Below are positions 37,495-53,093 of a stretch of DNA of 57,022 nucleotides, piece after piece. Position numbers and translations under genes: made by a program. The stretch lies in UHGV virus genome UHGV-1526745, one strand, 5' to 3'. The notes below the pieces were generated by a model. It saw only the letters and a program-made list of their open reading frames with translations, had not been told where the DNA came from and did not search any database. The stretch comes from a virus. How positions within the stretch are numbered: position 1 is the first letter of the stretch; each line of letters opens with the position of its first letter.

Positions 37495-37676
37495 TATTTC
37501 CCCCCGTAACGAGCAATAAGTTGTTTACGATCAGAAATAGACTGGACTAACTTTTTCTCAAGCTCTTTCAATGCAAGCAATTCGCGCATATGAAAAGCCC
37601 GGATTTGTCGGACTGTAGCTAAATCATGCTCATCGCGCTGAATATCTATTTGCAGATCTTTAACTTCGTTTTTCAT
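37494..37676 (-). CDS. hypothetical protein (60 aa)
   Basis: Track ORF between RusA and Q. Confidence 0.35.
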   Translation of the reverse strand: MKNEVKDLQIDIQRDEHDLATVRQIRAFHMRELLALKELEKKLVQSISDRKQLIARYGGK

Positions 37677-38080
37677 TGCTCACCCCACATATTAGTCGCG
37701 TATTCGTCAATATCCGGTAGTAGGTCGCCGCGTTCGCGGATCTTAATAAACAAGCGTCCGCCTTTTACCTTCCGGCAGCGGACAATTTTTATTGAGTCAA
37801 TTTGTCCATCATCTTTCCAAAATCCGGCATAAGTAAGGCTGTCAAATAGGCATTTAGGGATATTATCAAGATCCCTGGTCCGGTTATCAGGCGGCGCGGC
37901 ATAAATGGCGATTGCCAGTCGGCAAGACAGGTTAATGTCTAGATTTAATAATTCGATGATGTCTTTTACTTGTTCCCGGTATTCCTTCCCCACTTCGCTG
38001 ATATAGTGAAAACCCCGTGAATGTCGGTAATAGCGGTTATTCGATGGCGGGTAAGGCAGGCTAAAAGTATATTCATTCAT
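37673..38080 (-). CDS. rusA: Holliday junction resolvase RusA
   Basis: LPYPPSNNRYYRH... and RDLDNIPK motifs characteristic of RusA. Confidence 0.85.
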   Translation of the reverse strand: MNEYTFSLPYPPSNNRYYRHSRGFHYISEVGKEYREQVKDIIELLNLDINLSCRLAIAIYAAPPDNRTRDLDNIPKCLFDSLTYAGFWKDDGQIDSIKIVRCRKVKGGRLFIKIRERGDLLPDIDEYATNMWGEQ

Positions 38081-38682
38081 GCTGCCTTTCTCCTTAAGGC
38101 GTCCAATTTCGCCTGATAGATGTTTATTAGCTCCTTACATTCTGCGATCGTCCATTTATGCGTATCATTGTTGTTTTCCAGTGCTACCACCCTTGCGAGG
38201 CCAATTTTTCGAATCAGTGCCGGGCGATACCCTCCGATGCTGCCGTCTAGTGTCTGGTTGCAGTGCCTACATTGCTTATGGCAATTATCCTCGTTGAAGC
38301 GAAGGTGTCCGGCGGCGGCTACCGTCCTGTAATGACCTGCATCCCACCCGCATTGCTCACCGTAGTAAGTCCCGCAAGATATACACGGCAAGCGCGCGTC
38401 ACGTTCGCGAATATAGGCGTTAAATACATTTTGAACTTGTTTGATCCAATAACTACGCGGATTTAACTGTTTACGCTTCCGGTTGCGTTCTTCCCTCTGG
38501 CTATCACGGCGTTTCTTCCGCTCCATAGCCTTCATAGCCTTCTCACGGTCGCGGCATAGCTGGTCAAACTTCAGTTCTTCCAGACATTCATCGCTGCACC
38601 ACGTTTGATTGTGATATTTAGGCTCAAAAAAAACGCCGCAGCATTTGCAACGGCGTCTTATTGGTTTCTTAGGGTTTTGCAT
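38077..38682 (-). CDS. ninG: recombination protein NinG
   Basis: Internal start MQNPKKPIRRRCKCCG...; PRSYWIK, CISCG and DAGHYRT motifs as in lambda NinG. Confidence 0.8.
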   Translation of the reverse strand: MQNPKKPIRRRCKCCGVFFEPKYHNQTWCSDECLEELKFDQLCRDREKAMKAMERKKRRDSQREERNRKRKQLNPRSYWIKQVQNVFNAYIRERDARLPCISCGTYYGEQCGWDAGHYRTVAAAGHLRFNEDNCHKQCRHCNQTLDGSIGGYRPALIRKIGLARVVALENNNDTHKWTIAECKELINIYQAKLDALRRKAA

Positions 38683-38696
38683 AAAAACCACCCCGA

Positions 38697-38873
38697 TTAT
38701 TCTTGATTCTCTGTTTCGTTCAGCCTTTCGGCGTGTCCAGCCCTTAGCAAGCGATCTACGCATTCGTTGCACTCGTTACATTCTCCCTTCTTCGTGCTGC
38801 ATACACTGCACATTGCACGCATGACACTTTCCCGTTCATAGTCGTCATGCCATTGGTAATTCTCAAAAGACAT
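38697..38873 (-). CDS. small Cys-rich protein (58 aa)
   Basis: Manual translation MSFENYQWHDDYERESVMRAMCSVCSTKKGECNECNECVDRLL...; below track cutoff. Confidence 0.25.
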   Translation of the reverse strand: MSFENYQWHDDYERESVMRAMCSVCSTKKGECNECNECVDRLLRAGHAERLNETENQE

Positions 38874-39033
38874 AATGCTCTCTCCTTTTTCAGGTGATTT
38901 TTACGCATTTCAGCGTTACCGGATTTTTAAAGAGCATTTTGTTTGTTTGAAGTATACAAAACGGATACATGCGAACAAACAATAAAGCGCCATTATGTGA
39001 TCCGCATCACACAATGACGCCATTTTGTAAACA

Positions 39034-39798
39034 TCAATCCGGTAAAACGCGGTTAAGAGTAGTCCGCGTGATTGCCCGGTCATTAGCCAGGAATACAGCA
39101 CGGGCGAATCCTCGCGGCGTGAGTGAGCGGATCATCTTAGTGCGCTTCGACTTCCCGCCTAACTTCGCGTGCTGCTTACTATCTTCCCACTCATCAGGCA
39201 TTGGTACAGGCCGAAATAGCGGCTGTTTAAATCCGTTGCCGCACCAGATACAAGTTTTCTTCGTGTAGGCGTCGCGGTCGGCGATGTATTCCGGGAAAGC
39301 TGGATGCTTATCATCTTCCGGCAGGTAGCCACCGTAAGCGCACGGATTAAAAATGAAATCCGGCTTACGCCATAACGTTGACAGTGCTCCAACCGGGTTT
39401 TCCACCATCCACGGGACGTGGTACATGTCAGCAAGCGTTTCTACCAGTTTTGCGTTGTATGCCGCCTTCTGCTGGAAGTAAGGATCTTTTTCACGCTTGC
39501 TTGAAAACCAACGAGCGCCGGACACCGCAAGATCGTCGCACGGAGGAAAGCCCAGGATAATGTCAGGATCTGGATAAACAGACAATTCAGGGGAGAACAT
39601 TACCAGGAAATGGCTGTCAATCCATACGTTGACATATTCAATGTTAGGATGAATGATCTTGACGCCTTCATAATCGCCATGATTAGCGCCGTCATAATTG
39701 AAACAATAACACTTATAGCCAGCGTCGGCCCAATCTTTAACGGCGTACCCGCTGCCGTCGTACAGCGACCACACCACCCAATTTCTAAGCCCACTCAT
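39034..39798 (-). CDS. putative DNA C5-cytosine methyltransferase-like protein
   Basis: Motifs LYDGSG, GFPPCDD and MVENPVGAL resemble C5-MTase motifs I, IV and VI. Confidence 0.5.
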   Translation of the reverse strand: MSGLRNWVVWSLYDGSGYAVKDWADAGYKCYCFNYDGANHGDYEGVKIIHPNIEYVNVWIDSHFLVMFSPELSVYPDPDIILGFPPCDDLAVSGARWFSSKREKDPYFQQKAAYNAKLVETLADMYHVPWMVENPVGALSTLWRKPDFIFNPCAYGGYLPEDDKHPAFPEYIADRDAYTKKTCIWCGNGFKQPLFRPVPMPDEWEDSKQHAKLGGKSKRTKMIRSLTPRGFARAVFLANDRAITRTTLNRVLPD

Positions 39799-40370
39799 TT
39801 CCTACCCTCGAACGTAAAATAGCGACGAATGATGATAGTGATCACCGTTACAGCCGCCATTTTTGAGATGAATTGCATAGCTGATATTTCCGGCATAAAT
39901 GCCATAAACGATAGCGTGGGAAAAATTAACGCATCACCAATGGCGGACGCTATATTCGCAGGCCAGCGTTTTGAATCGAAATCGCCAGGTAAAATCCGGT
40001 AAACACCGCCAGAAATAAGCGCACCGGAAACAACCGCGACGAATGACGCGATCGCCACCATCCCGGCATCGTAGTTTATCAGCACCGTGATTGCGCCAGC
40101 GGCGGCGCATGTTGTAGCCGACCATTTCAGGCCGCCGTCATATAACAGGAAGTCACGGATCATCATATTGACGCACACGGCGGCTACCGTGGTGATCGGA
40201 ATTACCCACGGGCCGCAGTGGTTAACAATAAGGTTAATGATCACGAAAACGGCGACATAAATGCAGGCCAATAACCTGTCAATTGTCACCCTTTCCATTT
40301 TTATGATACCCCGCCGCGCGTAGTAGTGATTCGTTATCACACTTACCATCAAGCCTGTTTGCAAGGACAC
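39795..40370 (-). CDS. hypothetical polytopic membrane protein
   Basis: Track ORF; several hydrophobic segments. Confidence 0.45.
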   Translation of the reverse strand: MSLQTGLMVSVITNHYYARRGIIKMERVTIDRLLACIYVAVFVIINLIVNHCGPWVIPITTVAAVCVNMMIRDFLLYDGGLKWSATTCAAAGAITVLINYDAGMVAIASFVAVVSGALISGGVYRILPGDFDSKRWPANIASAIGDALIFPTLSFMAFMPEISAMQFISKMAAVTVITIIIRRYFTFEGRK

Positions 40371-40436
40371 TATTTAGCGTTACCTTGCTGCTGGCGATTA
40401 AGTCGCCTGGTATTGAGGCATTCTTACAGCCGCAAT

Positions 40437-40769
40437 TTAACGGTATATCAAAACAGCCCGTTTCTTTCTTTGGGCTTCCTCCCGCTCCGTTAATATTTGC
40501 TCCGCTTTTAGCGCGTTATAGCTAATCAAATCAATTAGCGTGTCTGTCGGATCTGATTTATTGCTTAAAATGGCCTCTAAACGCGCCTCCTTGAGACAAA
40601 TTAGCAGATCCCATACATCAAGCGGGGTTAAATCTGCTCCCTTCTTAGCGTTGTAAATAGTGGCTATTTTTGGCGCTGATTTTTCCTCTTTTTTGTCGTA
40701 GCCGTTTTGTTTACCTCTTTGCTCTATGGTTTCCGCTGCAAGTCTCAATAAATCTGCTGCCTTAGTCAT
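40437..40769 (-). CDS. hypothetical protein
   Basis: Track ORF 40437..40787; internal ATG chosen. Confidence 0.4.
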   Translation of the reverse strand: MTKAADLLRLAAETIEQRGKQNGYDKKEEKSAPKIATIYNAKKGADLTPLDVWDLLICLKEARLEAILSNKSDPTDTLIDLISYNALKAEQILTEREEAQRKKRAVLIYR

Positions 40770-41301
40770 TATCTGCACCTCTTGCATATAGCTCTTTACG
40801 TGTTATCTGCGTGAAAATACATTCATGTCTGCACCGTGGATGCCAGATCAAGAACAAGCTCCCCTTATTGTTTCCGCTTGCTGGTTTACCCGTCGCGGCA
40901 TTAATAAACGCCAGCCGCCCGCGCGTGATTAATCGGCATTCATTTGCCGTCTCCACGCCGTTCATAAACCAACTAACAGAAGTGTCGGCTGGCAATAACA
41001 TTACACAGCCAATATGATTTCGGTGGTGTTCAAACGCCGCCTTATCAACGAATGGTCCCGGATTAGAATATGGTGGATTCATCCAGACATATTCACCAGG
41101 CATCGCCACCGCTCCCCACGGGTAATTAAGCGTGTTCATTTCTTCGGTTATATATCGCGGAACTAATGCATTTGCCTTGTTTGCCGCCACGTCCGCGACG
41201 AATTCGAATTCCCGATCCATTCCTCTAAAAACAGGTTTCGGCGTCTGCCATAGGTCTTTTATTTCTTTCGGCGTATGACTGCCGCCGTAATCATTTTTCA
41301 T
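40762..41301 (-). CDS. phage-type DNA N6-adenine methyltransferase (Dam family)
   Basis: NPPYS catalytic motif; 179 aa. Confidence 0.8.
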   Translation of the reverse strand: MKNDYGGSHTPKEIKDLWQTPKPVFRGMDREFEFVADVAANKANALVPRYITEEMNTLNYPWGAVAMPGEYVWMNPPYSNPGPFVDKAAFEHHRNHIGCVMLLPADTSVSWFMNGVETANECRLITRGRLAFINAATGKPASGNNKGSLFLIWHPRCRHECIFTQITRKELYARGADND

Positions 41302-41311
41302 TGCGTCCCCC

Positions 41312-41545
41312 TTAGAAATAATCCTGCTCCGTCCCCCAGCGGTTATTCAGATACCCCACCAACCACACAAAACGCTCAATGCTGATTAGCGGGGCGACCT
41401 TGCGATAATGCTTGTCGAGTATCAGCCGCGTGGCTTTATCGCTGTAGCCGTTCTTCTCTACCTCCGCTTTGCAGGCCGAAAGCGCGGCGCGGGCGGCAGT
41501 CTTTACGGCGTTAAATTGCGGCTCTGACATATTGAATAAGGCCAT
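41312..41545 (-). CDS. hypothetical protein
   Basis: Internal start of track ORF 41312..41704. Confidence 0.35.
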   Translation of the reverse strand: MALFNMSEPQFNAVKTAARAALSACKAEVEKNGYSDKATRLILDKHYRKVAPLISIERFVWLVGYLNNRWGTEQDYF

Positions 41546-41549
41546 AGGA

Positions 41550-41786
41550 TCACCATGTGTCAGTCCAATCCGGCGCGGCAGTCCAGCAAAAACCAATGAA
41601 TGCGCTAACAGCCAATAAAGCGCGGGCTGCAAAAAGAATATTCCCAATGTCGTTAAATTCAGGAAGCGACCACGTAATAAACATAGCCCCCAGCATAATA
41701 ACACCGATAACAGTCAGGGCCGCCAGGAAAACAAAAAGCGTAGCCAAAAGCCACGCCCCCAACCAGTTAAAAAAGCTCTTAAGCAT
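41550..41786 (-). CDS. hypothetical membrane protein
   Basis: Internal start (MLKSFFNWLGAW...); two TM segments. Confidence 0.4.
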   Translation of the reverse strand: MLKSFFNWLGAWLLATLFVFLAALTVIGVIMLGAMFITWSLPEFNDIGNILFAARALLAVSAFIGFCWTAAPDWTDTW

Positions 41787-41787
41787 T

Positions 41788-41991
41788 TTAAACGTCCTCA
41801 ATTACCCCGCCTTTCACGCGCTCTTTAATATCCCATACGTGAGGCTTGCATATTTCTTGATAGTAGTGATCCGGCCTGCTGCCGAAATACCATTTGCCAT
41901 CCATATAAAAATAAACGCCAGAAAAATTTCCTGGCGCTGCCTTTGTTGCTGCTTCTGGAATTTTCCATTCCATGTAATGTTTAAATTTCAT
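41788..41991 (-). CDS. hypothetical protein (67 aa)
   Basis: Track ORF. Confidence 0.35.
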   Translation of the reverse strand: MKFKHYMEWKIPEAATKAAPGNFSGVYFYMDGKWYFGSRPDHYYQEICKPHVWDIKERVKGGVIEDV

Positions 41992-42175
41992 GAGTTTTTA
42001 AATAACCTCTTCTGAATGCTTTGATGTAAATTCCTAATCTCCTTATATGTTGAACGCCATCAATAAGACGTATTAAATAAATCGCTCCTTTTGCGTCAGA
42101 TACAAATCTACACCCGAAACCAATGCCAACTAATTTTAGGCTATCAGGTATTCGATAATCAGTTTCTTGTTCCAT
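41981..42175 (-). CDS. hypothetical protein (64 aa)
   Basis: Track ORF. Confidence 0.35.
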   Translation of the reverse strand: MEQETDYRIPDSLKLVGIGFGCRFVSDAKGAIYLIRLIDGVQHIRRLGIYIKAFRRGYLKTHEI

Positions 42176-42271
42176 ACATTACCTCATATGGTATTCAATA
42201 AACCACCTGATAAACAGGTATAAGGCAATAAAACCCCAGAAACAGCACATATAAAACAATGTATCGTCCAT
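42176..42271 (-). CDS. tiny hydrophobic peptide (31 aa) MDDTLFYMCCFWGFIALYLFIRWFIEYHMR
   Basis: Manual translation; abuts downstream ORF. Confidence 0.3.
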
Positions 42272-42273
42272 AA

Positions 42274-42492
42274 TTAAGCCTCAATAACACCGTAATCAAA
42301 CGTGCCTAAATACCGTTCGATACTTACAACCTCAATACCATCAATACACCGTTTCCACACAGACACCTGGCTTTCATTTTCTCTGAAGTGCATATTAGAA
42401 AGCACTTCATCGGCTGGATAGTCTTTCCCGGCGACGTAGGCATCGTGACCTACGCCACCTTCTACGCAATAAAGCATCAATTCGCGTTCCAT
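42274..42492 (-). CDS. hypothetical protein
   Basis: Internal ATG after GGAGG RBS within track ORF 42274..42549. Confidence 0.35.
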   Translation of the reverse strand: MERELMLYCVEGGVGHDAYVAGKDYPADEVLSNMHFRENESQVSVWKRCIDGIEVVSIERYLGTFDYGVIEA

Positions 42493-42591
42493 TTTTGCTT
42501 CCTCCGCACCGTAAACCTTTTGATTTCGGCTTACAAAACGGATATACAATCACAATACAAAATGTATATTTATGTGATCGGAATTACTCGG

Positions 42592-43212
42592 TTAATGCAG
42601 TACACGTTTTCCCTGTTCAGGCGTCGGCTGTGCGTTTTTCCGTGCGTAATTAAGCACAGCGATAGCCGCCTGTACGCCGAAATCATTTGCACGCATATCA
42701 TTGCCAACCATTTCACCGTAAAACAATGGCATGAGCGCTTTTACTTCTTCCTCTTTGTGGCCTTCCTCAATGCATTTCTGCAACATCTTAACCTCAAAGA
42801 TATTTTTCATCAGGACGCGCATAGAATGCAGTGAAACACTACCAAGCTGTTCCTTGTTCAACGGGAAAATGACAGCACTTCCGAACGCGAGCGGATCAAC
42901 CTCTTCCGGCACTGGTACGCGTCCGAATTCTTCCTCCATGCGCTTCACAAAAGTAAGAGAGAATACATAACGCGCTACCGATGTTTTTTCTTCCATACTT
43001 AAAGACACGTAATCGCGGATTGACGCACCCATCACAATATCAACAACCTGTAGCGCCAGATTCAAATCAGCGTCATACGCGCCAGCTTCCATATCTTTCA
43101 ATACTTCGTGATAATCTTTAATTTCCACTTCGTGAAAGTTTGCATCATCTGTATAGCGAGTGATCAACATACCTTCATTACCGAGAGAGTAAGCTGTTTT
43201 GATGTCGTTCAT
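42592..43212 (-). CDS. hypothetical protein (206 aa)
   Basis: Track ORF. Confidence 0.45.
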   Translation of the reverse strand: MNDIKTAYSLGNEGMLITRYTDDANFHEVEIKDYHEVLKDMEAGAYDADLNLALQVVDIVMGASIRDYVSLSMEEKTSVARYVFSLTFVKRMEEEFGRVPVPEEVDPLAFGSAVIFPLNKEQLGSVSLHSMRVLMKNIFEVKMLQKCIEEGHKEEEVKALMPLFYGEMVGNDMRANDFGVQAAIAVLNYARKNAQPTPEQGKRVLH

Positions 43213-43225
43213 GATATTTATCCTT

Positions 43226-43558
43226 TTATAGTGGGTGATGCCATTTCATTTCAGTTTCTGAATTAAACGGGTTTCCTTCGCTTGAAAGGAATAAATCACG
43301 CTCCCGTTTCAGTTCTTCCGGGCTTATTTCTATTTCATCAATCTGACCGAACGATCCCGGCATCATTCGTTTTAAATCAGATAGCGGACGCATAAGGCCG
43401 CAGCCGCGTAACAGCATATCGACCGCGAATTGTCTACGTCCGCCAGCGTCATTGAAGCGCCGCGCCCAGGGCACAACCACGATCCGGCGTTCGAATTCGA
43501 TAAATAGTGATAGCTTGTTTGTTTCGCTATCATATGCTTTATGGAATTTAATTTTCAT
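43226..43558 (-). CDS. hypothetical protein (110 aa)
   Basis: Track ORF. Confidence 0.4.
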   Translation of the reverse strand: MKIKFHKAYDSETNKLSLFIEFERRIVVVPWARRFNDAGGRRQFAVDMLLRGCGLMRPLSDLKRMMPGSFGQIDEIEISPEELKRERDLFLSSEGNPFNSETEMKWHHPL

Positions 43559-43739
43559 TTAACACCTCAACATATTGTTCAAGATGCCATTGACCCACCT
43601 CATCATCTTCCTCGTCAAATAATGTTACCTGACCACCAGGCCCAAAAGAAAAGGCAGCTATGATAAATTTATACCCATACCACGTACGGATCTTTTCGCC
43701 GCCTTTTAAATCTTTAACTTTTACCAATTTTATAGCCAT
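43548..43739 (-). CDS. hypothetical protein (63 aa)
   Basis: Track ORF. Confidence 0.35.
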   Translation of the reverse strand: MAIKLVKVKDLKGGEKIRTWYGYKFIIAAFSFGPGGQVTLFDEEDDEVGQWHLEQYVEVLNEN

Positions 43740-44002
43740 ACGCCGAACATCCCATTCAGTCCGGCGAACAATTTCCGCCAGTGGTCTTCAACATAAGCCC
43801 GGAACGGCTTAACGCGAACGTTACGGGCCTTCAGTTCGATCTTGTCAAAGAAGCGCGGCTCTATAATTGTTCCGTCCAGATATTTAACCAGGATCGGACG
43901 CTCAAGATCGTTATATGTCTTATTCAGCACAACCAGACCAGGGTCTTTACGGTATTCCGGGAGCACGACCAGATCACCCGTTTTGATATTCATGAATGGC
44001 AT
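43730..44002 (-). CDS. hypothetical protein
   Basis: Track ORF 43730..44005 (GTG); ATG at 44002 preferred. Confidence 0.4.
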   Translation of the reverse strand: MPFMNIKTGDLVVLPEYRKDPGLVVLNKTYNDLERPILVKYLDGTIIEPRFFDKIELKARNVRVKPFRAYVEDHWRKLFAGLNGMFGVWL

Positions 44003-44118
44003 CACATCACCCCGCCGATATAGCTAATAATTGCCGCAGTCGCGCCAGCTATTACCACCATGAAGACGAAAGCGACCACATAGAAAACAGCCTTGACAGT
44101 ATTTTTGTCGACTCGCAT
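44002..44118 (-). CDS. small hydrophobic peptide (38 aa) MRVDKNTVKAVFYVVAFVFMVVIAGATAAIISYIGGVM
   Basis: Manual translation; coupled to neighbours. Confidence 0.35.
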   Translation of the reverse strand: MRVDKNTVKAVFYVVAFVFMVVIAGATAAIISYIGGVM

Positions 44119-44125
44119 ATAAACC

Positions 44126-44233
44126 TCACATGTCAGTAATCAGCTTAACAATCGCCACAGTGATATAGAGTGACGCACTAAGGTAAACAGCCGCCACAGC
44201 AACGGCGGCGGATAACATTGCAATCTTTTTCAT
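44126..44233 (-). CDS. small hydrophobic peptide (35 aa) MKKIAMLSAAVAVAAVYLSASLYITVAIVKLITDM
   Basis: Manual translation; ATGA overlap with upstream stop. Confidence 0.35.
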   Translation of the reverse strand: MKKIAMLSAAVAVAAVYLSASLYITVAIVKLITDM

Positions 44234-44481
44234 TTGCCACCCTCCGCAATGAACTTATCAAGCCATTTGTTATTAGCCAGCCGTTCGGCATCTTCGCCAA
44301 ATGATTTACGTTCGCTTAATTCCTTGCGCGTCGGGAAAGGCCATTTATCGTGCCAGCCCGCCGACGTTTCGAATTCATAGTTATCGCCACCGAATTCGAC
44401 AAATACATCACCATCGTCTGAGGTTTCCGCAGTCCCCTGAAAACCGCGCCCGTTATTTTCGCTTAATGTTGTAGCTGTCAT
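44230..44481 (-). CDS. hypothetical protein (83 aa)
   Basis: Track ORF. Confidence 0.4.
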   Translation of the reverse strand: MTATTLSENNGRGFQGTAETSDDGDVFVEFGGDNYEFETSAGWHDKWPFPTRKELSERKSFGEDAERLANNKWLDKFIAEGGK

Positions 44482-44493
44482 GGTAATACCTCA

Positions 44494-44772
44494 TTAATCG
44501 TTAATAACCTTGCCCATACGCCCGCGATATTTGCGCATTCGTGGATCAACATATTCAGGCCACTGCATATCATCAGTTTTCTGTAGCGGGTAAGAACTCG
44601 CTCGCCAGTTGTCAAACCAGATTTGCTTCGCGTACAGGTCACTAAATCTTTTCGCCATTCGATCCGCTGCCGTGCCGCATAAAAAAAGCCCGCGATCGAT
44701 TTGATCGCGGGCTTCTTTTAATACTTGCTCTTTTGTTCGTGGTTGCGGTGGCGGTTTTAGACAATCACTCAT
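44494..44772 (-). CDS. hypothetical protein
   Basis: Internal start (MSDCLKPPPQ...) of track ORF 44494..44904. Confidence 0.4.
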   Translation of the reverse strand: MSDCLKPPPQPRTKEQVLKEARDQIDRGLFLCGTAADRMAKRFSDLYAKQIWFDNWRASSYPLQKTDDMQWPEYVDPRMRKYRGRMGKVIND

Positions 44773-44788
44773 CGCTAACACATTGATT

Positions 44789-45208
44789 CTAAAAAGGAAT
44801 ATCGTCGTCGAAGTCCATCGGAGGCGGATTATTCCCGTTATTATTCTGCTGCTGCGGCGGCGCTTTCTGCTGCTGTCCTTGCTGCTGGCCTTGTTGGTTA
44901 ACATTCATGAATTCAAATTCATTAACCGCCACTTCTACCGCAGTCCCCTTCGTGCCGTCGTTCCGGTCATATTGCCGAACATCCAGGCGACCGCTTACCA
45001 CTATTTTTCCACCCTTGCGGATATGTGGCGCTAATTTTTCCGCACGCTCACCAAATACCAGGCAAGTGATCCACATTGTCCGCTTGTTATCACCGTAGCC
45101 ATTCGTTACAGCTAACGGAAAACTACCAATCGCTTTACCGTTTTGCGTGTAGCGAACTTCCATGTCGTTTCCGATATTCCCGCCCAGCGTAATTGAATTC
45201 AAACTCAT
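44789..45208 (-). CDS. ssb: single-stranded DNA-binding protein
   Basis: OB-fold N-terminus, Gln/Gly-rich linker, acidic tail DFDDDIPF. Confidence 0.9.
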   Translation of the reverse strand: MSLNSITLGGNIGNDMEVRYTQNGKAIGSFPLAVTNGYGDNKRTMWITCLVFGERAEKLAPHIRKGGKIVVSGRLDVRQYDRNDGTKGTAVEVAVNEFEFMNVNQQGQQQGQQQKAPPQQQNNNGNNPPPMDFDDDIPF

Positions 45209-45852
45209 TAACCCATCTCCCCGTTAAGCTCTGCGACCCGGATGTCATAAACATCTTTTGCCTTGATTCGATGTTCCGATCCTTCCGGTAGTAATTTCCA
45301 GCATTTGCCAAATATTTCACGCAGCTTGTTAGCGTCCTGCGCTTTCGCTGCTGCATCACAGAAACGTGCTAATACTTCATCAGGATTTGGCGGCGCTTTC
45401 TTCTGCTGCGGTTGTTGTTTTGGTGGGTTTTTCTGTTGTCGCGGCTGCTGGCCTGTCTGCTTCGCGTAAGCATCAGTATCAGGATCGCGAGCATCATCTA
45501 TACAGAATAAACCGTTCAAAGCATATTTACGCGCGTAACTTGATGTTGCTCCTGTTAGCTGGCTGGCGTCCATACCCTTCTTGTTTTCTTCCTCCCTGGC
45601 ATAAGCAGTTACCGCTATTACGTCTTCACCGTCGCTTAGCGTCGCCGTTGCTTTCACATAATAGCGATTGCCGATCAGGACAATTTCATCACTAACAGTC
45701 AGCGTGATATTTTGAAGCAGTGGTTTAACCGCCTCTAAAATATCCTCCGCCGACCTGTAATTATATCCACCAAAATTATTACGCTGATTTTTCGGCGCGT
45801 TCAGCGTTTGCTGAATCGTCCATAGCTTTTTATGTAACTCTGTTTTCACCAT
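45208..45852 (-). CDS. Erf-family single-strand annealing recombinase
   Basis: 214-aa ORF directly upstream of ssb; resembles P22 Erf-type proteins (recalled). Confidence 0.7.
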   Translation of the reverse strand: MVKTELHKKLWTIQQTLNAPKNQRNNFGGYNYRSAEDILEAVKPLLQNITLTVSDEIVLIGNRYYVKATATLSDGEDVIAVTAYAREEENKKGMDASQLTGATSSYARKYALNGLFCIDDARDPDTDAYAKQTGQQPRQQKNPPKQQPQQKKAPPNPDEVLARFCDAAAKAQDANKLREIFGKCWKLLPEGSEHRIKAKDVYDIRVAELNGEMG

Positions 45853-47439: not shown

Positions 47440-47742
47440 CGCTACCCTATAACCTCAAAAAGTTTGATGCAAGTCACAAAACGTGTATTTTAAGCCTTGA
47501 TCTTAAAATTCCATTTTGTAAACTTGCAGACAAGGTAAGGCCATACTTGCAAAGACGCAAGGAAAAAGATAACGGAAGGCACAAAAAGGCACTTACCTTA
47601 TGCTCTTTAAAAATCCGGTGTCGCTGCGAAGCGAAAAACAAATATCACGCAACGGCGGGATCTGTTGAGCGGTCAGTCACTGCTATCTAATGCTAATGGG
47701 ATGCCCGCCCGCGCGTTCACTCTAACCATAGGAGAAAATGCG
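47440..47742. promoter_or_regulatory. right operator/promoter region
   Basis: Divergent intergenic region; inverted repeats CTTGCAGACAAG and CTTGCAAAGACGCAAG (47523..47562) plus CCATTTTGTA motif. Confidence 0.4.
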
Positions 47743-48000
47743 ATGAGTATAAACATGATTAGTAAAGCATGGAACGTAAAACTTAATAGCCCGATTCAAA
47801 AACTTGTCTTAATGGCTCTGGCTGAAAAGGCAGATAACAAAGGACGGGTACATGATGCATCACGCAAAGAAGTAGCCGCAATGTGTGAACTTCCTGTTCA
47901 TACGGTACATGATGCCTTCGCCGCGTTAATGGATAAAGGATTTGTTTGTCGTCTTGATGCATTCAGTGATGTCTATGTAGTGATGTTGCCGGAGGGATGA
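47743..48000 (+). CDS. winged-HTH DNA-binding protein (Cro/CII-position regulator or replication-associated)
   Basis: ATG after AGGAGAAA RBS inside track ORF 47665..48000; first rightward gene. Confidence 0.5.
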   Translation: MSINMISKAWNVKLNSPIQKLVLMALAEKADNKGRVHDASRKEVAAMCELPVHTVHDAFAALMDKGFVCRLDAFSDVYVVMLPEG

Positions 48001-48003
48001 TCT

Positions 48004-49056
48004 ATGAAGTGGTTTAAGCATGACAGCGATGCGAACCGCGATGAAAAACTTCAAAACGTTTTGTTAGATTATGGCCTGGAAGGGTACGGGCTTTATTGGT
48101 ATTGCCTCGAACTAATAACTTATGACGTAGATCAGCACAATCTGACTTTTGACCTACGACATGACGCGAGAATCATTGCGCGAAACGTCGGATCGACTGA
48201 AAAACGTATAGAAGAAATGATGAAATACTTCATCGAAATTGGTTTGTTTGAATGTTCTCAAGGCCACATAACTTGTTTAAAGTTATTGAAAAGGCTTGAC
48301 CAATCAATGACTTCTAAAAGCGCGTACAGGGCCGCCATAAACACAGCTAAGGAGCAATTAAAATTAGAAAAGTTAATCAATCCAACACAAAAAGGTCATG
48401 ATAGGGTCATGACCGGGTCAGGAAAGGGTCATGAATTAGAATTAGAAGTAGAAGAAGAAAGAGAAAAAGATATATACACTTCGTGTATTGTCGAAAATGA
48501 ACAAAAAATGGTCAATCATGATGGCGTAAACGAAGCGGCGTTGCGTTGCCTGGCCTTCTACAACGACAAGGCAGGATGCAAATGTCGTGATGCGAAGCCA
48601 TTCATCGAACTACTGACAGAAACAAAAACACGTAAAGCGTATACGGAGGATGAGATCACATTAGTGATTGAGTGGGCTTTAACGCAATGGCGTAGCCGTG
48701 GTGGAACACCTAAGCCTATCAATATTTGCCGGGTAACTAAATTTGATGGGTATCTGACTGATGCTGAACAATGGCGCAAACTGTCAGCCACTGCAAACGC
48801 TGCCGACGTGGTGGAAGCATTTAACAGCACGTTTGACGGCCTGTTACCACCTGTCGAACTGGATCGGGATCTTGAACGCAAGATCTATGCGTTCACTGAC
48901 TACCTGAAAGACAAAAGCATTAACGGCTTTGTCGCCTACTTCGAAACATTCAAAAACACGGCTTCAGATTTTTACTTCGGCAATGGCTTCACAGCGACAC
49001 TTGATTTCCTGCTTAAACCAAAAACGCTACGCGACACACGCGCAGGCGCTCTTTGA
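48004..49056 (+). CDS. replication protein, DUF4373 (Lin1244-like) N-terminal domain
   Basis: MKWFKHDSDANRDEKL... start characteristic of DUF4373 (recalled). Confidence 0.55.
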   Translation: MKWFKHDSDANRDEKLQNVLLDYGLEGYGLYWYCLELITYDVDQHNLTFDLRHDARIIARNVGSTEKRIEEMMKYFIEIGLFECSQGHITCLKLLKRLDQSMTSKSAYRAAINTAKEQLKLEKLINPTQKGHDRVMTGSGKGHELELEVEEEREKDIYTSCIVENEQKMVNHDGVNEAALRCLAFYNDKAGCKCRDAKPFIELLTETKTRKAYTEDEITLVIEWALTQWRSRGGTPKPINICRVTKFDGYLTDAEQWRKLSATANAADVVEAFNSTFDGLLPPVELDRDLERKIYAFTDYLKDKSINGFVAYFETFKNTASDFYFGNGFTATLDFLLKPKTLRDTRAGAL

Positions 49057-49444
49057 CCAACCACGATTCGCAAAAATCCAAAATTACCCACAAAACAACC
49101 TCACCAGCGAGCTAAAACACGCATGGTGCTACGATTGCATATCTTTAGCTATTTAGCTCGTTATAGAGCGTTTTAGAGAGGATTTTAAAATGGACGGTAA
49201 ACACGTTTTCGCCCTGGCCTTTGCCATCGCTGCTGCAATCGCTGTTAACGTCGCTTTGTTCGGCGGTTTGTTCCTTCTTATCAATCCATAACCTTCATAC
49301 CAGCCTGTAAATCAAAAATTAGCCACCTGAGAGCGCCTCTGACGCAATAAGACACTGCAACCTGTGCAAACGGGTTACGCGGTGGGATTTTTGCGTTGTA
49401 GCACGTCTGAGGCGTTATATATAAAATTAAGAAAAGAGGTACAT

Positions 49445-50500
49445 ATGATTGCCACTTATCATGTGAAACTAAATTGTAAGGACACGCAATTACTATCTGT
49501 TAATAATCTTGTTTCTGAACTTGAAATCGATAGGCTTAAATCATTTGTTAAATACTCTGATCTTTACGGATTTGAGGAATACAAGGATTTTATTATTGAT
49601 GGTGATGATGTGTATATCACACCTATAACGTTTATTAGATTCGTTACACCTGGTAAATATAGACATTATGAATATAATGAAAATTGGGTTAAGCCAGTTA
49701 TTGAATCTTGTGGATTAGTTGATTTACAAGATGTGTTTAATAAATATTCAAATAATACCAGAAAAGATAGTCCTTATGCTTATAATTATGTTTTATGGTG
49801 TAACAACTATGTTGAAACTAGTGATACTCCCGGGCGATGCTCTGTGTATGTGTCAAAGGAAGATGCTGAAAAGTATAAAAAATGGTTGTTCGTTACTCGC
49901 GGAGTATCAATAGAAAAACTATGGGTAAGGTTGTTTCATTCAAGCGATATTGCAGATCCAGATACGTTTTTAAATGAACATCTTAATAATGATGAGTTTA
50001 CCATTGATTTAAATATTGAATATTTTACAGTTAAAACAAATTATGGATATGAAAGATATATTAGCGATAAGATAGCGGAAAAGTATCATACATGGGGTCA
50101 AAATAAAGGTCTTAGTAATAATTTTGAATGCGGTAATTATAACGACATAGAAAACTTTATTGAATTAAAAAGCGACAAGAATGTAATTGAGGAAATAAAA
50201 AGGGAATGTGACGAGAAATTATCAGAAATGAGTTATAATTGTAAAAATATGATTAGGAAGCGTTATGAACATGCTGGATTAACTATGTACGAAAAACTAA
50301 AAGGAGTTAAATTAATAAGGCAATATCCTGTTAATGTTGCTGGCAACAAGTATTTTATTGATGGCTACGATCTTGTGAATAATATTGCTGTAGAAATTGA
50401 TGAATCACATCACAAACGGCAAGCAAAAAGCGATGCGATAAGACAAAAACGCATTGAGGATTATTTGGGGTGCAAGTTTTTTCGTTGTGCTATATCCTGA
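49445..50500 (+). CDS. AT-rich moron protein with C-terminal DUF559/Vsr-like nuclease-type domain
   Basis: ATG after AAGAGG RBS; C-terminus YFIDGYDLVNNIAVEIDESHH...DAIRQKRIEDYLGCKFFRC fits DUF559-type pattern; strongly AT-rich versus neighbours. Confidence 0.55.
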   Translation: MIATYHVKLNCKDTQLLSVNNLVSELEIDRLKSFVKYSDLYGFEEYKDFIIDGDDVYITPITFIRFVTPGKYRHYEYNENWVKPVIESCGLVDLQDVFNKYSNNTRKDSPYAYNYVLWCNNYVETSDTPGRCSVYVSKEDAEKYKKWLFVTRGVSIEKLWVRLFHSSDIADPDTFLNEHLNNDEFTIDLNIEYFTVKTNYGYERYISDKIAEKYHTWGQNKGLSNNFECGNYNDIENFIELKSDKNVIEEIKRECDEKLSEMSYNCKNMIRKRYEHAGLTMYEKLKGVKLIRQYPVNVAGNKYFIDGYDLVNNIAVEIDESHHKRQAKSDAIRQKRIEDYLGCKFFRCAIS

Positions 50501-50534
50501 TGTATACAAAATGTAAACCTGAGGAATTAACATT

Positions 50535-51653
50535 ATGTCGCAAAGAAAAATCAGCGATGAGCAATTGATCGCTGAATATAACAACGGTTTAACGTACAAG
50601 CAGATTGCTGAAAAATATGGCATGTCAAAACGCAATGTCGAGCGCCTGGGCGCAAAACTGGCGAAACGTGGTTTATTATCAACACGCCGCGCTCCTGGTT
50701 TTGGCGTCAATGGCGAGTCGTTGCTAGTCGATAAGAACGGCAATGTTATCATGCGCTGGATTAAAACAGCCCGTGACCGCGAAGAAATGGAACAGCTAAT
50801 GGAAGCGGCCCGCGACGCTTTCACTGATGAAATACCACGCGCGGAGGCTGTGCCAGTGCCTGAAATTGATTTTCAAAAAAGCCTGGCACTTTATCCGGTG
50901 TTTGATCTGCATATCGGGGCGCTTGCTCATAAAGCTGAATGCGGTGAGAGCTACGATACTGGGATCGCTGAGCGCGTGTTGAATGACTTCTTTGACTACG
51001 CTGTTGGCGCTGCTCCGATGTCTGAAAAAGCTGTTTTACTTCTCGGCGGTGATGTGCTTCACACTGACGGCCTGTTACCAGTGACGCCATCAAGTAATCA
51101 CGTTTTAGATTGTGATTCACGCTACGCAAAACTGGTTTATGTGGCGATCCGGTCGGTCCGGCGTGCGGTCGGGAAGATGTTACTAAATCATAAGGATGTC
51201 GAGATCCAGGTATTATCCGGTAATCACGACCAATCAGGTATGATCTGGCTACGTGCTGCGCTTGCGGCTTTTTACGAAGATGAGCCGCGCGTGACTGTTG
51301 ACGTGTCACCTGCCATTGTCCACCACACACAGTATGGCAAAACATTCCTTGCTTACCACCACGGGCACACTATCAAAAAGCCGGAAAATTTATTGTCTGC
51401 TTGCGTAGCTGACTGGCGGGAGGATTTCGGAAGGTCTGTGGCTGTTTACGCTCACACTGGACATCTGCACCATCAATCAGTTGTTGAAACATCACTTGGA
51501 ATAGTTGAGCACCACGGCACATTAGCTGGCAAAGACGCATATTCAACTAATGGCGGCTGGCGGTCGCGGCGTCTGGCAGCGGTGATTATTTACAGCCCGG
51601 ATCATGGGGAAATTGGGCGCTTTGTTTATTACCCTGAATATTCCATTTTGTAA
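50535..51653 (+). CDS. HTH domain fused to calcineurin-like metallophosphoesterase
   Basis: N-terminal LTYKQIAEKYGMSKRNVERL HTH; DLH, GGDVLHTDG, SGNHD and TGHLHH motifs. Confidence 0.6.
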   Translation: MSQRKISDEQLIAEYNNGLTYKQIAEKYGMSKRNVERLGAKLAKRGLLSTRRAPGFGVNGESLLVDKNGNVIMRWIKTARDREEMEQLMEAARDAFTDEIPRAEAVPVPEIDFQKSLALYPVFDLHIGALAHKAECGESYDTGIAERVLNDFFDYAVGAAPMSEKAVLLLGGDVLHTDGLLPVTPSSNHVLDCDSRYAKLVYVAIRSVRRAVGKMLLNHKDVEIQVLSGNHDQSGMIWLRAALAAFYEDEPRVTVDVSPAIVHHTQYGKTFLAYHHGHTIKKPENLLSACVADWREDFGRSVAVYAHTGHLHHQSVVETSLGIVEHHGTLAGKDAYSTNGGWRSRRLAAVIIYSPDHGEIGRFVYYPEYSIL

Positions 51654-51671: not shown

Positions 51672-53093
51672 ATGGTAACTGAGCAAATAAACTCACTACG
51701 GCAGGAACGTGAAGCGTCAGTTATCGGCGGGCTACTGTTAGGTGGCCTTACTCCTAACGCGCAAGATGTTCTCGCCACACTTGATCCTGAAGTGTTCACG
51801 ATCCCGCTTTATAAACGTGCGTTTGAAGTTATCCGGGCGCAAGCCAGAAACAGAAATCTTATCGACGCGTTATTGGTTGGCGATGAGATTGGCAATGAAA
51901 ACTTTGTACCGCTAATGCAAACGGCACGATCGTGCCCTTCTGCTGCCAACCTGAAAGGATATGCGCAACTACTACAGGAAGAACACCAGCGTCGGCAAAT
52001 GCTGGAACTAATGGAAGACATTCGCTACAAGCTGGAAACAGGGACGCTTGAAGTCGTCAGGGAGACGATGAAAGATTTTGATTCCCGGTATTCAAAATTA
52101 AAGGTAACAAAAGATCAAATTATCCCGGTGCTGTTGCGCGATGCGGTCCAGGAATACACGGAAGTGTTAAGTAAACGCATGGAGTGTGGCGTGAACTCTG
52201 ACAACATCAAAACAGGGATTGACCCACTCGACGAAATGTTAGGCGGCATTAACGCTACTGATCTGGTGCTTATCGCCGGACGCCCAGGGTCTGGTAAATC
52301 GGCGTTGGCGTTGGCAATTGCCCGCGCGGCGGCTGAACGCCCATACCCTGGAGGCGAAGGTCAGCGGGTCGGCGTTTTGCTGTTCACGCTTGAAATGTCG
52401 CTCGATCAGATGACTGAACGCGCTATCGCTGGCGCAGGGAACTTGTCAACGGATTGCTTACGTAATCCGGTAAAACTGGATGACGAAGGATGGGCGCACG
52501 TTGCCCAGGGAATGAGCGCACTTGCTGATCTCGATGTGTGGATTGTTGATGCATCACAGTTAACTGTCGAGGAAATACGCGCCACAACTGAACGAATGAA
52601 GCAGGATTATCCCAACCTGGGTATGGTAATGATTGACTACATCGGGTTAATGAAGCTGGCTAAGGCAGAACGTCACGATCTCGCTGTAGGGCAATTGTCG
52701 TGGTCATTGAAAATGATGGCGAAAGAATTGCGCGTACCAGTGGCGGCGCTGGCGCAATTATCCCGCCGCGTCGAGGAACGACCGAACAAGCGACCGAACA
52801 ATTCTGATCTGCGCGATTCCGGCAATCTTGAACAGGACGCAGACCGGATCATCATGGTATACCGCGACGGCTACTACAACGAACAATCTGTTGCACGCGA
52901 ATACATGGAGATTATCGTTTCAAAAAACCGTCACGGAAAAACCGGGACTGTTTACCAGCGTTTTGACGACAACGGCAACATATTACCGTGTGACCAGGCC
53001 CGCGCGGCGTCAGCTTGCATCCAGTCAATGCAACAACGTCCGGCGGTAAGCCGATTCTCGCCACGAAACAACCAGAATAAAGCATCTTTTTAA
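51672..53093 (+). CDS. dnaB: replicative DNA helicase (DnaB family)
   Basis: 473 aa; Walker A GRPGSGKS; DnaB-type N- and C-terminal domains. Confidence 0.9.
   Translation: MVTEQINSLRQEREASVIGGLLLGGLTPNAQDVLATLDPEVFTIPLYKRAFEVIRAQARNRNLIDALLVGDEIGNENFVPLMQTARSCPSAANLKGYAQLLQEEHQRRQMLELMEDIRYKLETGTLEVVRETMKDFDSRYSKLKVTKDQIIPVLLRDAVQEYTEVLSKRMECGVNSDNIKTGIDPLDEMLGGINATDLVLIAGRPGSGKSALALAIARAAAERPYPGGEGQRVGVLLFTLEMSLDQMTERAIAGAGNLSTDCLRNPVKLDDEGWAHVAQGMSALADLDVWIVDASQLTVEEIRATTERMKQDYPNLGMVMIDYIGLMKLAKAERHDLAVGQLSWSLKMMAKELRVPVAALAQLSRRVEERPNKRPNNSDLRDSGNLEQDADRIIMVYRDGYYNEQSVAREYMEIIVSKNRHGKTGTVYQRFDDNGNILPCDQARAASACIQSMQQRPAVSRFSPRNNQNKASF

Follow-up and report, generated by a model that had tools for sequence, protein, structure and literature searches.

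The stretch of DNA analysed here (the window; 57,022 nucleotides of the virus genome UHGV-1526745) carries a prophage of the non-lambdoid mEp-immI group, and not a lambdoid phage as a first reading made from the letters alone (hereafter, the sequence-only reading) had taken it to be. Its integrase is annotated as tyrosine-type, and a P22-type Erf/SSB/Abc2 set is also present. Within this prophage, we examined a gene for a protein in which a metallophosphoesterase (MPE) core follows a helix-turn-helix (HTH) domain (Table 1). Just as had been described, the gene lies directly upstream of dnaB, the spacing from its stop codon to the start of the helicase gene being 18 nt, and this DnaB is closest to ST104/P22 gp12 (57% identity). 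Together, the MPE and DnaB genes form a single block of about 50% GC with no signals between the two, whereas the DUF559 gene has a GC content of 28-33% and lies outside the MPE unit; in relatives, the same upstream slot holds Rha-like or zinc-ribbon genes. The idea that the MPE gene is a recent foreign insert was rejected, as its GC content is like that of the DnaB gene and not that of the DUF559 gene. A MarR/Ren-like gene is also found among the neighbors. As for a role of the MPE protein as the resection nuclease of Erf, this is less likely, since the P22-type Erf/SSB/Abc2 set would use RecBCD.

Table 1. Positions of the MPE gene, its encoded domains and motifs, and neighboring genes in the window.
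Feature	Position	Strand	Basis or remark
Small O-like N-terminal ORF preceding the initiator gene	47665-48000		
Initiator/organiser: Lin1244_N and O-like C-terminal part	48004..49056	+	Pfam Lin1244_N; phrog_20981, 428, 345, 4617
DUF559/mREase-like gene, variable slot directly upstream of MPE	49364..50500	+	Pfam DUF559; PADLOC mREase_II
Shine-Dalgarno-like GAGGAA, 8 nt before the MPE gene ATG	50521..50526	+	sequence inspection
HTH-metallophosphoesterase CDS, complete (372 aa and stop)	50535..51653	+	ORF; phrog_704 member
N-terminal basic tri-helical HTH domain (residues 1-50)	50535..50684	+	sub-threshold Pfam HTH matches; AF2 helices
Beta-hairpin (residues 56-80), helix (82-98) and linker	50685..50864	+	AF2 secondary structure; conservation
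MPE catalytic core (residues 111-372)	50865..51650	+	
Motif I, D124-L-H126	50904..50912	+	D124 and H126 99% conserved each
Motif II, GGD173VLH176TDG (GDxxH form)	51045..51071	+	D173 100%, H176 97%
Motif III, SGN230H231D	51216..51230	+	N230 and H231 99% each
Motif IV, H275H276GH	51357..51368	+	H276 99%
Motif V, TGH310LH312H	51456..51473	+	H310 95%, H312 99%
DnaB-type replicative helicase, P22 gene 12 type	51672..53093	+	Pfam DnaB_C, DnaB; own GGAGG

Domain layout and catalytic motifs

In the AF2 model, the three helices of the HTH domain span residues 8-16, 21-27, and 32-44 (pLDDT of 72-86). This domain has a computed pI of 9.9 and resembles sigma-70 region 4 in Pfam, the HTH matches being below threshold, and it is the least conserved part of phrog_704-type proteins, being absent from some representatives. 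In the hairpin that follows, residues G69 and W75 are each conserved in at least 94% of the family representatives. In the model, the final strands of the MPE core are also the end of the protein (residue 372). Between motifs II and III, the core holds a conserved insert (residues about 174-220, including T184, L191, D192, D194, and R196), which is likewise basic with a computed pI of 9.9.

All five MPE motifs are present behind the small basic HTH domain, and thus the fusion of an N-terminal HTH domain with an intact calcineurin-like core, as proposed in the sequence-only reading, is borne out. The metal ligands (D124, H126, D173, N230, H231, H276, H310, and H312), whose loss would have spoken against that proposal, are 95-100% conserved across 148 representatives taken from 50%-identity clusters, and the same residues are invariant in a cross-family alignment of seven sequences. 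Moreover, the gene is under purifying selection, with a dN/dS of 0.066 at a dS of about 0.6 in both domains (33 alleles of the mEp-immI lineage).

The Pfam models Metallophos (PF00149) and Metallophos_2 (PF12850) did not match the whole protein at E≤0.01, and residues 111-372 gave no Pfam match even at E≤10; the phrog_704-type sequence is too divergent for the Pfam Metallophos models. For the catalytic core, there was also no match in NCBIfam, and none in PADLOC at E≤0.1. With these three collections silent on the catalytic domain, the MPE assignment is based on the motifs, PHROG membership, and the predicted fold. The predicted structure does contain the beta-sandwich MPE fold, and its nearest likenesses are the nuclease MPEs SbcD, Mre11, and PolD DP1. 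A sequence search of the PDB returned HTH matches only, all of them insignificant, while a Foldseek search of the PDB returned weak generic MPE matches only.

Family membership, spread, and genomic company

The HMM search called for by the sequence-only reading gave a full-length match to phrog_704 (E=8.5e-140), with residues 4-368 aligned to profile positions 2-387 of 390. The protein is 95% identical to mEp554_11 and, over its full length, 58% identical to gp16 of coliphage T1 (ST16, YP_003929), of which it is an orthologue. Homologs are found in 2048 phage records and form about 4400 clusters at 50% identity, and the T1 gp16-type gene counts as persistent in Drexlerviridae, with 508 of 522 carrying it (PMC13164509). 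A scan of GTDB genomes found only eight loci. In PHROG, phrog_704 is annotated as ‘DNA repair exonuclease’, though this family name is an annotation and never an experimental result. Our literature search (phrog_704, escape mutants in ‘DNA repair exonuclease’, and the function of the Drexlerviridae phosphoesterase) found no characterization, and a paper on the replication module of Stx-phage Eru describes no relevant gene (PMC8951638).

The surroundings of the gene differ from phage to phage. In T1-like phages, it closes the early operon (in T1, a helicase/Dam operon) beside the lysis cassette, and in Jerseyviruses it lies in an island among tail genes. In Era103, it belongs to a block of DNA polymerase, exonuclease, polynucleotide kinase (PNK), and ligase genes, with the order being MPE, PseT-like PNK, a T1 p62-like gene, and DNA ligase. 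RecE/RecT genes are near the MPE gene in one locus (L014) and a RusA gene in another (L010), whereas HAD_PNKP, YbcO, and DUF1064 genes are its neighbors in IMG/VR loci. Across phages, its company is that of DNA metabolism genes, which we counted in favor of a DNA substrate.

Comparison with known systems

T1 gp16 has the same HTH, hairpin, and MPE architecture as the protein here, as well as the same start, and both are early-operon genes transcribed with helicase genes. They differ in position, however, as gp16, like its counterparts in 508 of 522 Drexlerviridae, stands at the end of the early operon before the lysis cassette and has no DnaB gene beside it, while in the temperate mEp-immI prophage examined here the gene has the initiator on one side and DnaB on the other. 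As a lead only, a non-essential T1 gene (‘2.5’) may be required for the breakdown of host DNA and might correspond to gp16; the literature search yielded nothing usable on this process in T1.

Of the analogues that have been studied, the Bxb1 gp47/A10ZJ24 Gp48 MPE and T5 A1 come closest. Bxb1 gp47, an MPE, is described as required for phage DNA replication in PMC11795197, which cites Savinov (2012), and its structural neighbors are, as for the protein here, Mre11 and PolD DP1 (PMC11795197). A10ZJ24 Gp48 is a Mn-dependent DNase that acts on linear, plasmid, and genomic DNA, and the phage depends on it to replicate its DNA in M. tuberculosis (PMC12287305). Bxb1 gp47 is a stand-alone MPE with five motifs, and in Bxb1 its gene lies in the company of replication genes, namely those of primase and polymerase. 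Yet, with 255 residues and motif I at its N-terminus, it lacks the HTH/hairpin module of the protein here, and it is detected by Pfam Metallophos whereas the latter is not. In hhalign comparisons, gp47 as a single sequence gave a probability of 79% (E of 1.7e-5) and the gp47 family, profile against profile, a probability of 45% (E of 2.2e-4), with only motifs III-V aligned in both cases; we counted this remote and only marginal likeness in favor of a DNA nuclease. Moreover, the RDF role of gp47 belongs with a serine integrase, unlike the tyrosine-type integrase of this prophage.

T5 A1, a predicted MPE, is both required for the breakdown of host DNA and enough to bring it about (bioRxiv 10.64898/2026.04.02.716235). 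Like the protein here, it is a predicted stand-alone phage MPE, is encoded by an early gene, and has nuclease-like structural neighbors; in place of a fused HTH domain, T5 has a separate DNA-binding partner, A2. A1 has 556 residues, however, and is reported to be largely restricted to Demerecviridae (bioRxiv 10.64898/2026.04.02.716235). Homology to A1 was rejected (hhalign probability of 1%).

The nuclease domain of Mre11/SbcD has a similar fold at about 15% identity, and only this domain aligns, the capping domain and Rad50-binding region being absent here. The N-terminal HTH/hairpin module, in turn, is without counterpart in Mre11, and hhalign with E. coli SbcD was not significant (probability of 3%, E of 0.015). 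A search for a Rad50/SbcC ATPase gene came up empty for the neighbors, for T1, and for the scanned large ORFs of the window, which encode tail, terminase, and portal proteins and a helicase. Archaeal PolD DP1, with which we grouped the inactive eukaryotic polymerase B-subunits as comparison MPEs, is a 3'-5' proofreading exonuclease that has an OB fold where the protein here has an HTH domain and hairpin. A DP2-like polymerase is absent, and this phage operon includes no DNA polymerase.

Candidate roles of the enzyme

Strict pairing of the MPE gene with dnaB is confined to the mEp-immI lineage. Among 5426 E. coli genomes, 35 carry the MPE gene and likewise 35 this DnaB allele, and the two were adjacent in every record checked among the E. 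coli matches listed. In 41 related mEp-immI loci, the DnaB gene is at +1 in 38 and at +2 in three, and the 18-nt gap is kept in 38. Within the lineage, then, the pairing whose conservation the sequence-only reading had proposed to check is strict, but it disappears beyond it, with none of 79 diverse IMG/VR viral loci having an adjacent DnaB-like gene and only eight having one up to 6 kb away (offsets of -6 to -12 genes). Homologs unlinked to replication genes, which that reading had named as evidence against itself, are largely what we found, as these IMG/VR loci and the T1-like and Jerseyvirus contexts attest.

The co-inheritance, the conserved spacing, and the shared GC block would suit a helicase loader, or an obligatory DnaB partner, that replaces a lambda-P or DnaC type of protein and recruits DnaB to the origin. 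We nonetheless regard such a role as highly improbable. Many homologs belong to phages without DnaB, such as T1 and its relatives, and linkage within one lineage is not independent evidence. The protein has no Pfam, NCBIfam, or PHROG match to loader families (lambda P, DnaC/IstB-like AAA+, or SPP1 G39P type), and its fold is that of an MPE, with conserved catalytic residues that indicate an enzyme and not an adaptor. Nor is this a slot where a loader would be expected, as had been assumed, given that DnaB relatives of the P22 gene 12 type, including that of ST104, directly adjoin the O-like gene 18 and leave no room for a loader gene. The P22 gp12-type helicase works beside gene 18 without one.

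Since the family is very common and usually far from any helicase gene, the MPE protein is most likely an accessory DNA nuclease instead of a loader. Put in full, and held with about even confidence, our preferred reading is that of an HTH-tethered two-metal DNA phosphodiesterase serving as an accessory nuclease of the replication/recombination operon. As such, it would be an active phosphodiesterase of the calcineurin-like superfamily using two metals of the Mn2+/Mg2+ type, with DNA as the most likely substrate. Two basic parts, the HTH domain and the insert beside the active site, would keep the enzyme bound to nucleic acid, and phosphodiester bonds would be cleaved by the MPE core acting as an exonuclease, an endonuclease, or both. 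The gene is probably co-transcribed with those of the initiator and DnaB helicase in the rightward early operon, and its product would have an accessory DNA-processing role in lytic growth. Candidate jobs include the trimming or processing of ends and intermediates for replication or recombination, as well as the breakdown of competing or host DNA. The earlier proposal of an unusual replication factor thus survives in a weaker form, as an accessory nuclease in a replication operon for which Bxb1 gp47 sets a precedent, while its loader part does not. We also consider it conceivable, although rather unlikely, that the mEp-immI protein is a true component of the replisome, where a DNA-tethered nuclease together with the phage DnaB and host polymerase may perform such jobs as 3'-end editing, primer/flap removal, or fork processing.

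Other chemistries of the MPE core have to be weighed against the accessory nuclease. In one, which we judge unlikely, the enzyme heals nucleic-acid ends as a 3'-phosphatase, as a 2',3'-cyclic phosphodiesterase, or by trimming blocked ends, and together with a polynucleotide kinase/phosphatase and a ligase it would repair nuclease-damaged tRNA or DNA of phage or host as a counter-defense. Such chemistry is performed by the MPE domain of the Clostridium thermocellum RNA-repair enzyme Pnkp. A link to PNK components does recur, as in Era103, in the IMG/VR loci (HAD_PNKP phosphatase at +1/+2 in seven of 79 and a P-loop kinase at +2 in six), and in Webervirus-type loci, in which HAD and kinase genes come after the MPE gene, and L014 has an RNA-ligase-like gene upstream. 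In Drexlerviridae that lack SH3, moreover, polynucleotide kinase and dNMP kinase are the commonest genes directly downstream (PMC13164509). The link is nevertheless found in a minority of loci, the T1 PNK gene (ST64) is about 36 kb from gp16, and in this window the MPE gene has no PNK, HAD_PNKP, or ligase gene nearby. Besides, HAD_PNKP already supplies a 3'-phosphatase activity, which would make the MPE redundant. Less probable still is an anti-defense phosphodiesterase directed at nucleotide second messengers (CBASS, Pycsar, Thoeris, or type III CRISPR). For action on nucleotide signals, which the sequence-only reading had offered as an option, we found no positive evidence, and the protein gave no match to defense or anti-defense profiles in PADLOC. 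A DNA-binding type of HTH domain and a basic insert are unexpected in a small-molecule sink, the gene is core and not sporadic in Drexlerviridae (508 of 522), and both the DNA-metabolism neighbors and the nuclease identity of the nearest structural matches point elsewhere, though fold similarity alone does not decide against it, and class III cyclic-nucleotide phosphodiesterases (CpdA/Rv0805) have the MPE core in common with the protein here.

Very unlikely, too, is a protein phosphatase like lambda NinI (lambda-PP) with protein targets in host or phage, in which the sigma-70 region 4-like domain might steer the enzyme to DNA-bound proteins or RNA polymerase. NinI is of the same superfamily and sits at a position resembled by that of the T1 gp16-type gene in several temperate phages, where the latter is near YbcO/DUF1064/RusA genes just before lysis cassettes, and a Phage_antitermQ gene is directly downstream in nine of 79 loci. 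Even so, the GDxVDRG and GNHE motif forms of NinI (PPP type) are not those of the MPE protein, which differs in its type of motif II, and homology was rejected as there is no profile similarity. Protein phosphatases also rank low among the structural matches, and no NinI-type gene is present in the short nin-like region of the window. A main role as a late-gene regulator, suggested by the HTH domain and the position upstream of Q/lysis genes elsewhere, was rejected in view of the strong purifying selection on the catalytic residues.

For the dnaB-adjacent slot, the outcome is mostly deflationary, in that the MPE gene proves to be an unremarkable representative of an uncharacterized phage family that is already catalogued. 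That family, however, is carried near-universally by T1-like phages, including many therapeutic phages of Klebsiella, E. coli, and Salmonella. To learn its true role, be it as a replication-linked nuclease, host-DNA degrader, end-repair enzyme, or anti-defense enzyme, would sharpen gene annotation in thousands of genomes, and it would also bear on transduction risk and host takeover by therapeutic phages. Here, the mEp-immI prophage offers a tractable temperate system in E. coli K-12 (mEp021 and mEp554), with the gene in a compact replication operon. Were the replisome reading to be true, a common and unstudied phage family would represent a new class of replication nuclease in bacterial viruses.

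The gene product, its family and its conservation

The product of the HTH-metallophosphoesterase (MPE) gene joins an N-terminal HTH domain to a calcineurin-like core. Its ORF has just the bounds that a sequence-only reading had given, and the motifs quoted there, DLH, GGDVLHTDG, SGNHD, and TGHLHH, are all present (see table). A GAGGAA ribosome-binding site was seen on inspection 8 nt upstream of the ATG. The HTH is supported by four lines, these being sub-threshold Pfam HTH matches at the N-terminus (Rrf2, Sigma70_r4_2, HTH_IclR, and HTH_28/36), precomputed PF08281 or PF13384 matches in close homologs, three helices predicted by AF2 within residues 8-44, and the basic character of residues 1-50 (pI 9.9).

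Features of the window and motifs present in the MPE protein
Feature	Position	Strand	Remarks
Helicase-family ORF	1181-2734	+	517 aa; matches phrog_2373 (phage DNA helicases), E=3e-82
Small O-like ORF	47665-48000	+	first of rightward early operon; resembles O-like initiators (phrog_4617) in their N-terminal part only
Initiator, Lin1244_N + O-like C-terminal region	48004-49056	+	350 aa; starts 3 nt after small O-like ORF
DUF559/mREase-like gene	49364-50500	+	378 aa; between initiator and MPE gene
MPE ORF	50535-51653	+	ATG start; 372 aa
MPE motif DLH	residues 124-126		
MPE motif GGDVLHTDG	residues 171-179		
MPE motif SGNHD	residues 228-232		
MPE motif IV, HHGH	residues 275-278		
MPE motif TGHLHH	residues 308-313		
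ORF between NinB and Xis-like genes	54759-55415	+	218 aa; conserved in mEp554
Xis-like ORF, putative	55415-55633		rightward operon; by eye only

An HMM search, as proposed with that reading, placed the whole protein (residues 4-368) in phrog_704 of PHROGs ('DNA repair exonuclease', E=8.5e-140), the family of coliphage T1 gp16 (ST16), with which it shares 58% identity over the full length. Pfam was blind to the catalytic domain even at E<=10, neither NCBIfam nor PADLOC matched the catalytic core, and a sequence search of solved structures was likewise without a match. By tblastn, relatives are present in 2048 GenBank phage records, the hosts being Escherichia, Klebsiella, Salmonella, Vibrio, Campylobacter, Flavobacterium, and Rhodobacter, among others. 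Moreover, HMMER, run exhaustively against 1.84 billion cluster representatives, returned 4391 clusters at E<=1e-3 (953 at E<=1e-30), mostly of 370-450 aa and with the layout of this protein.

Over 148 mutually distant cluster representatives, the metal ligands (D124, H126, D173, N230, H231, H276, H310, and H312) are 95-100% conserved, whereas their loss would have counted against the sequence-only reading. Equally conserved are residues specific to the family, namely G69 and W75 (both in a β-hairpin), E135, and H176, as well as T184, L191, D192, D194, and R196, which lie in a basic insert that separates motif II from motif III. For the mEp-immI prophage lineage, 33 distinct alleles give a dN/dS of 0.066 at dS ~0.6, with equally small values for the N-terminal module and for the MPE core. 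The gene thus encodes an enzyme under strong purifying selection. Two IMG/VR loci (L037, 6001-7116, and L038, 3585-4700) have the motif I ligand substitution H126Y in otherwise intact, 92% identical ORFs, which may reflect either loss of activity or errors in sequencing.

Genomic surroundings within and outside the lineage

The window represents an E. coli prophage from the mEp-immI group, which was described recently and is non-lambdoid and Nus-dependent (PMC11893012). The MPE protein is 93-96% identical to its mEp554 and mEp010 counterparts, and the window's DnaB 94-97% identical to that of mEp021, mEp554, and MagusPhagus. The MPE gene belongs to the early replication/recombination operon and is expressed from there. 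As had been noticed from the sequence, it lies directly upstream of dnaB (Pfam DnaB_C, 2e-75; DnaB N-terminal domain, 8e-12), which starts 18 nt past the MPE stop, and nothing resembling a promoter or terminator rises above the shuffled background between the two genes. Further along the operon are a MarR/Ren-like gene, small ORFs, NinB, the Xis-like ORF, and the integrase; the 218-aa ORF here has no PHROG or PADLOC match. The initiator function is apparently split between the two O-like ORFs. The leftward arm carries the P22-type recombination set (Erf, SSB, and Abc2), followed by two DNA methyltransferases, NinG/Rap, a Q-like antiterminator, and the late genes. This unusual architecture, with a leftward operon (36775-45852, -) running into late genes and a rightward end at 55415-56838, fits the non-lambdoid mEp-immI group (PMC11893012). 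Far to the left, beyond the tail-fibre genes and on the strand opposite the structural genes, the helicase-family ORF may be part of a neighboring element or prophage cargo.

Within the lineage, the pairing with dnaB is strict. Of 5426 complete E. coli genomes, 35 carry the MPE gene and 35 the window's DnaB allele, and the two are adjacent in all checkable records among the matches listed. In 38 of 41 related loci, DnaB follows immediately, always with the 18-nt gap, and the other three have an HNH homing-endonuclease gene inserted (~200 aa, an insertion of 540-551 nt; 7016-7624 in locus L045 and two other mEp-immI loci); in mEp010 (PP180001.1), the intervening gene is annotated 'homing endonuclease'. 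The MPE gene has HNH neighbors in T1, Warwickvirus, a Jerseyvirus, and Vibrio phages as well, and these sequence contexts suggest that it is a frequent homing target or landmark. Upstream, the slot is variable (Rha-like, zinc-ribbon, or DUF559 cassette), and the window's DUF559 gene (28-33% GC, beside a ~50% GC block of the MPE and DnaB genes), with a C-terminus matching DUF559 (Vsr/restriction-endonuclease-like) and PADLOC 'mREase_II', has the look of an exchangeable cassette, be it a moron, a homing endonuclease, or a defence gene. Because all these loci descend from one module, the MPE-DnaB linkage does not count as independent evidence.

Outside the lineage, no DnaB-like gene adjoins the MPE gene in 79 further diverse IMG/VR loci, though one lies within 6 kb in eight (offsets -6 to -12). 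Recurrent neighbors among the 79 are Phage_antitermQ at +1 (nine loci), HAD_PNKP (seven), a P-loop kinase (six), YbcO, DUF1064, and lysis genes. In T1, the MPE gene ends the helicase/Dam early operon, with the lysis cassette next, as it does in 508 of 522 Drexlerviridae, where a polynucleotide kinase (PNK) or dNMP kinase often follows (PMC13164509). Elsewhere, it is found in a small island among tail genes (Jerseyviruses), flanked by endonuclease/exonuclease genes and PNK plus ligase (SP6-like Era103), or adjoining phosphatase and HNH genes (an N4-like Vibrio phage), holin, endolysin, or RusA genes (Pseudoxanthomonas, Luteibacter, and Mesorhizobium prophages), and RecE/RecT-like genes (a Myxococcales contig). 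Homologs unlinked to replication genes, which the sequence-only reading had named as grounds against it, are thus largely what is seen with respect to dnaB, though the neighbors of the MPE gene do generally serve DNA metabolism. Specific to the lineage is only the gene's fixed place between initiator and DnaB.

Fold, known MPEs and candidate functions

The predicted fold is unambiguously that of an MPE. Foldseek gave generic matches only, and the fold comparison ranked SbcD (14.7), Mre11 (14.3), MJ0936 phosphodiesterase (14.2), PolD DP1 proofreading exonuclease (13.7), Pol delta B-subunit (13.4), LpxH (12.9), and Rv0805 (12.3) above the protein phosphatase PP5 (8.6); the model leans, by a small margin, to the nuclease branch. 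Motifs and fold place the protein in the MPE superfamily, which Pfam models do not. It is not an Mre11/SbcD member, lacking a capping domain and sequence-level homology (the in-register match to SbcD is non-significant), and no Rad50/SbcC partner is found among its neighbors or the scanned ORFs of the window. Nor does it belong to the PPP phosphatases or any known helicase-loader family. The family shows no profile similarity to T5 A1 and matches the gp47 family of cluster A mycobacteriophages marginally, over motifs III-V (hhalign 79% against a single sequence, 45% profile-profile). Like the window's gene product, T5 A1 and the gp47 homolog A10ZJ24 Gp48 are stand-alone phage MPEs, and both have been studied experimentally. 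Gp48 shows Mn-dependent DNase activity against linear, plasmid, and genomic DNA, and phage DNA replication in M. tuberculosis requires it (PMC12287305). Host DNA degradation requires A1, a predicted MPE, and A1 alone suffices for it (bioRxiv 10.64898/2026.04.02.716235).

The protein has an intact two-metal active site, maintained by selection, within an MPE fold, together with a basic HTH and a basic insert close to that site. The favored reading, held with middling confidence, is that of an HTH-tethered DNA phosphodiesterase, an accessory nuclease that would serve replication, recombination, or the turnover of DNA. We infer a DNA substrate and nucleolytic activity because the protein's structural neighbors belong to the nuclease MPEs, its fused domain is of DNA-binding type, and three studied stand-alone phage MPEs, Gp48 and A1 among them, behave so. 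Alternatively, the recurrence in unrelated phages of a T1 gp16-type MPE followed by a HAD_PNKP phosphatase, a P-loop kinase, and sometimes a ligase (in IMG/VR loci L100-L179, Era103 at 6169-8200 of L004, and Webervirus-type L093 and L095) hints at an end-processing toolkit, but this string is absent from the window, and an end-healing enzyme working with PNK and ligase is unlikely here. A phosphodiesterase acting on nucleotide signals, as the sequence-only reading had also raised, we consider quite improbable. A NinI-like protein phosphatase is very unlikely, and the family has no profile similarity to lambda NinI.

The strict pairing with dnaB within the lineage would suit a helicase loader, yet this position is not a loader slot, and that role is scarcely credible. 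The nearest DnaB relatives outside the lineage are the P22/ST104 gene 12 helicases (57% identity), whose gene directly abuts the O-like gene 18 without any intervening gene, and the pairing is lost elsewhere. P22-type replication modules are known to need no separate loader. The original observation is upheld and its interpretation partly supported, while its premise of a missing loader was wrong.

Since the protein falls within phrog_704 and the MPEs, with Mre11/SbcD, PPP, and loader assignments excluded, the gene is largely an ordinary member of a very common, catalogued, uncharacterised phage family, one that is core in T1-like phages. That replication depends on it as a genuine replisome-associated nuclease, in the manner of DP1 or gp47, seems doubtful; mEp021/mEp554 and T1 are tractable systems.
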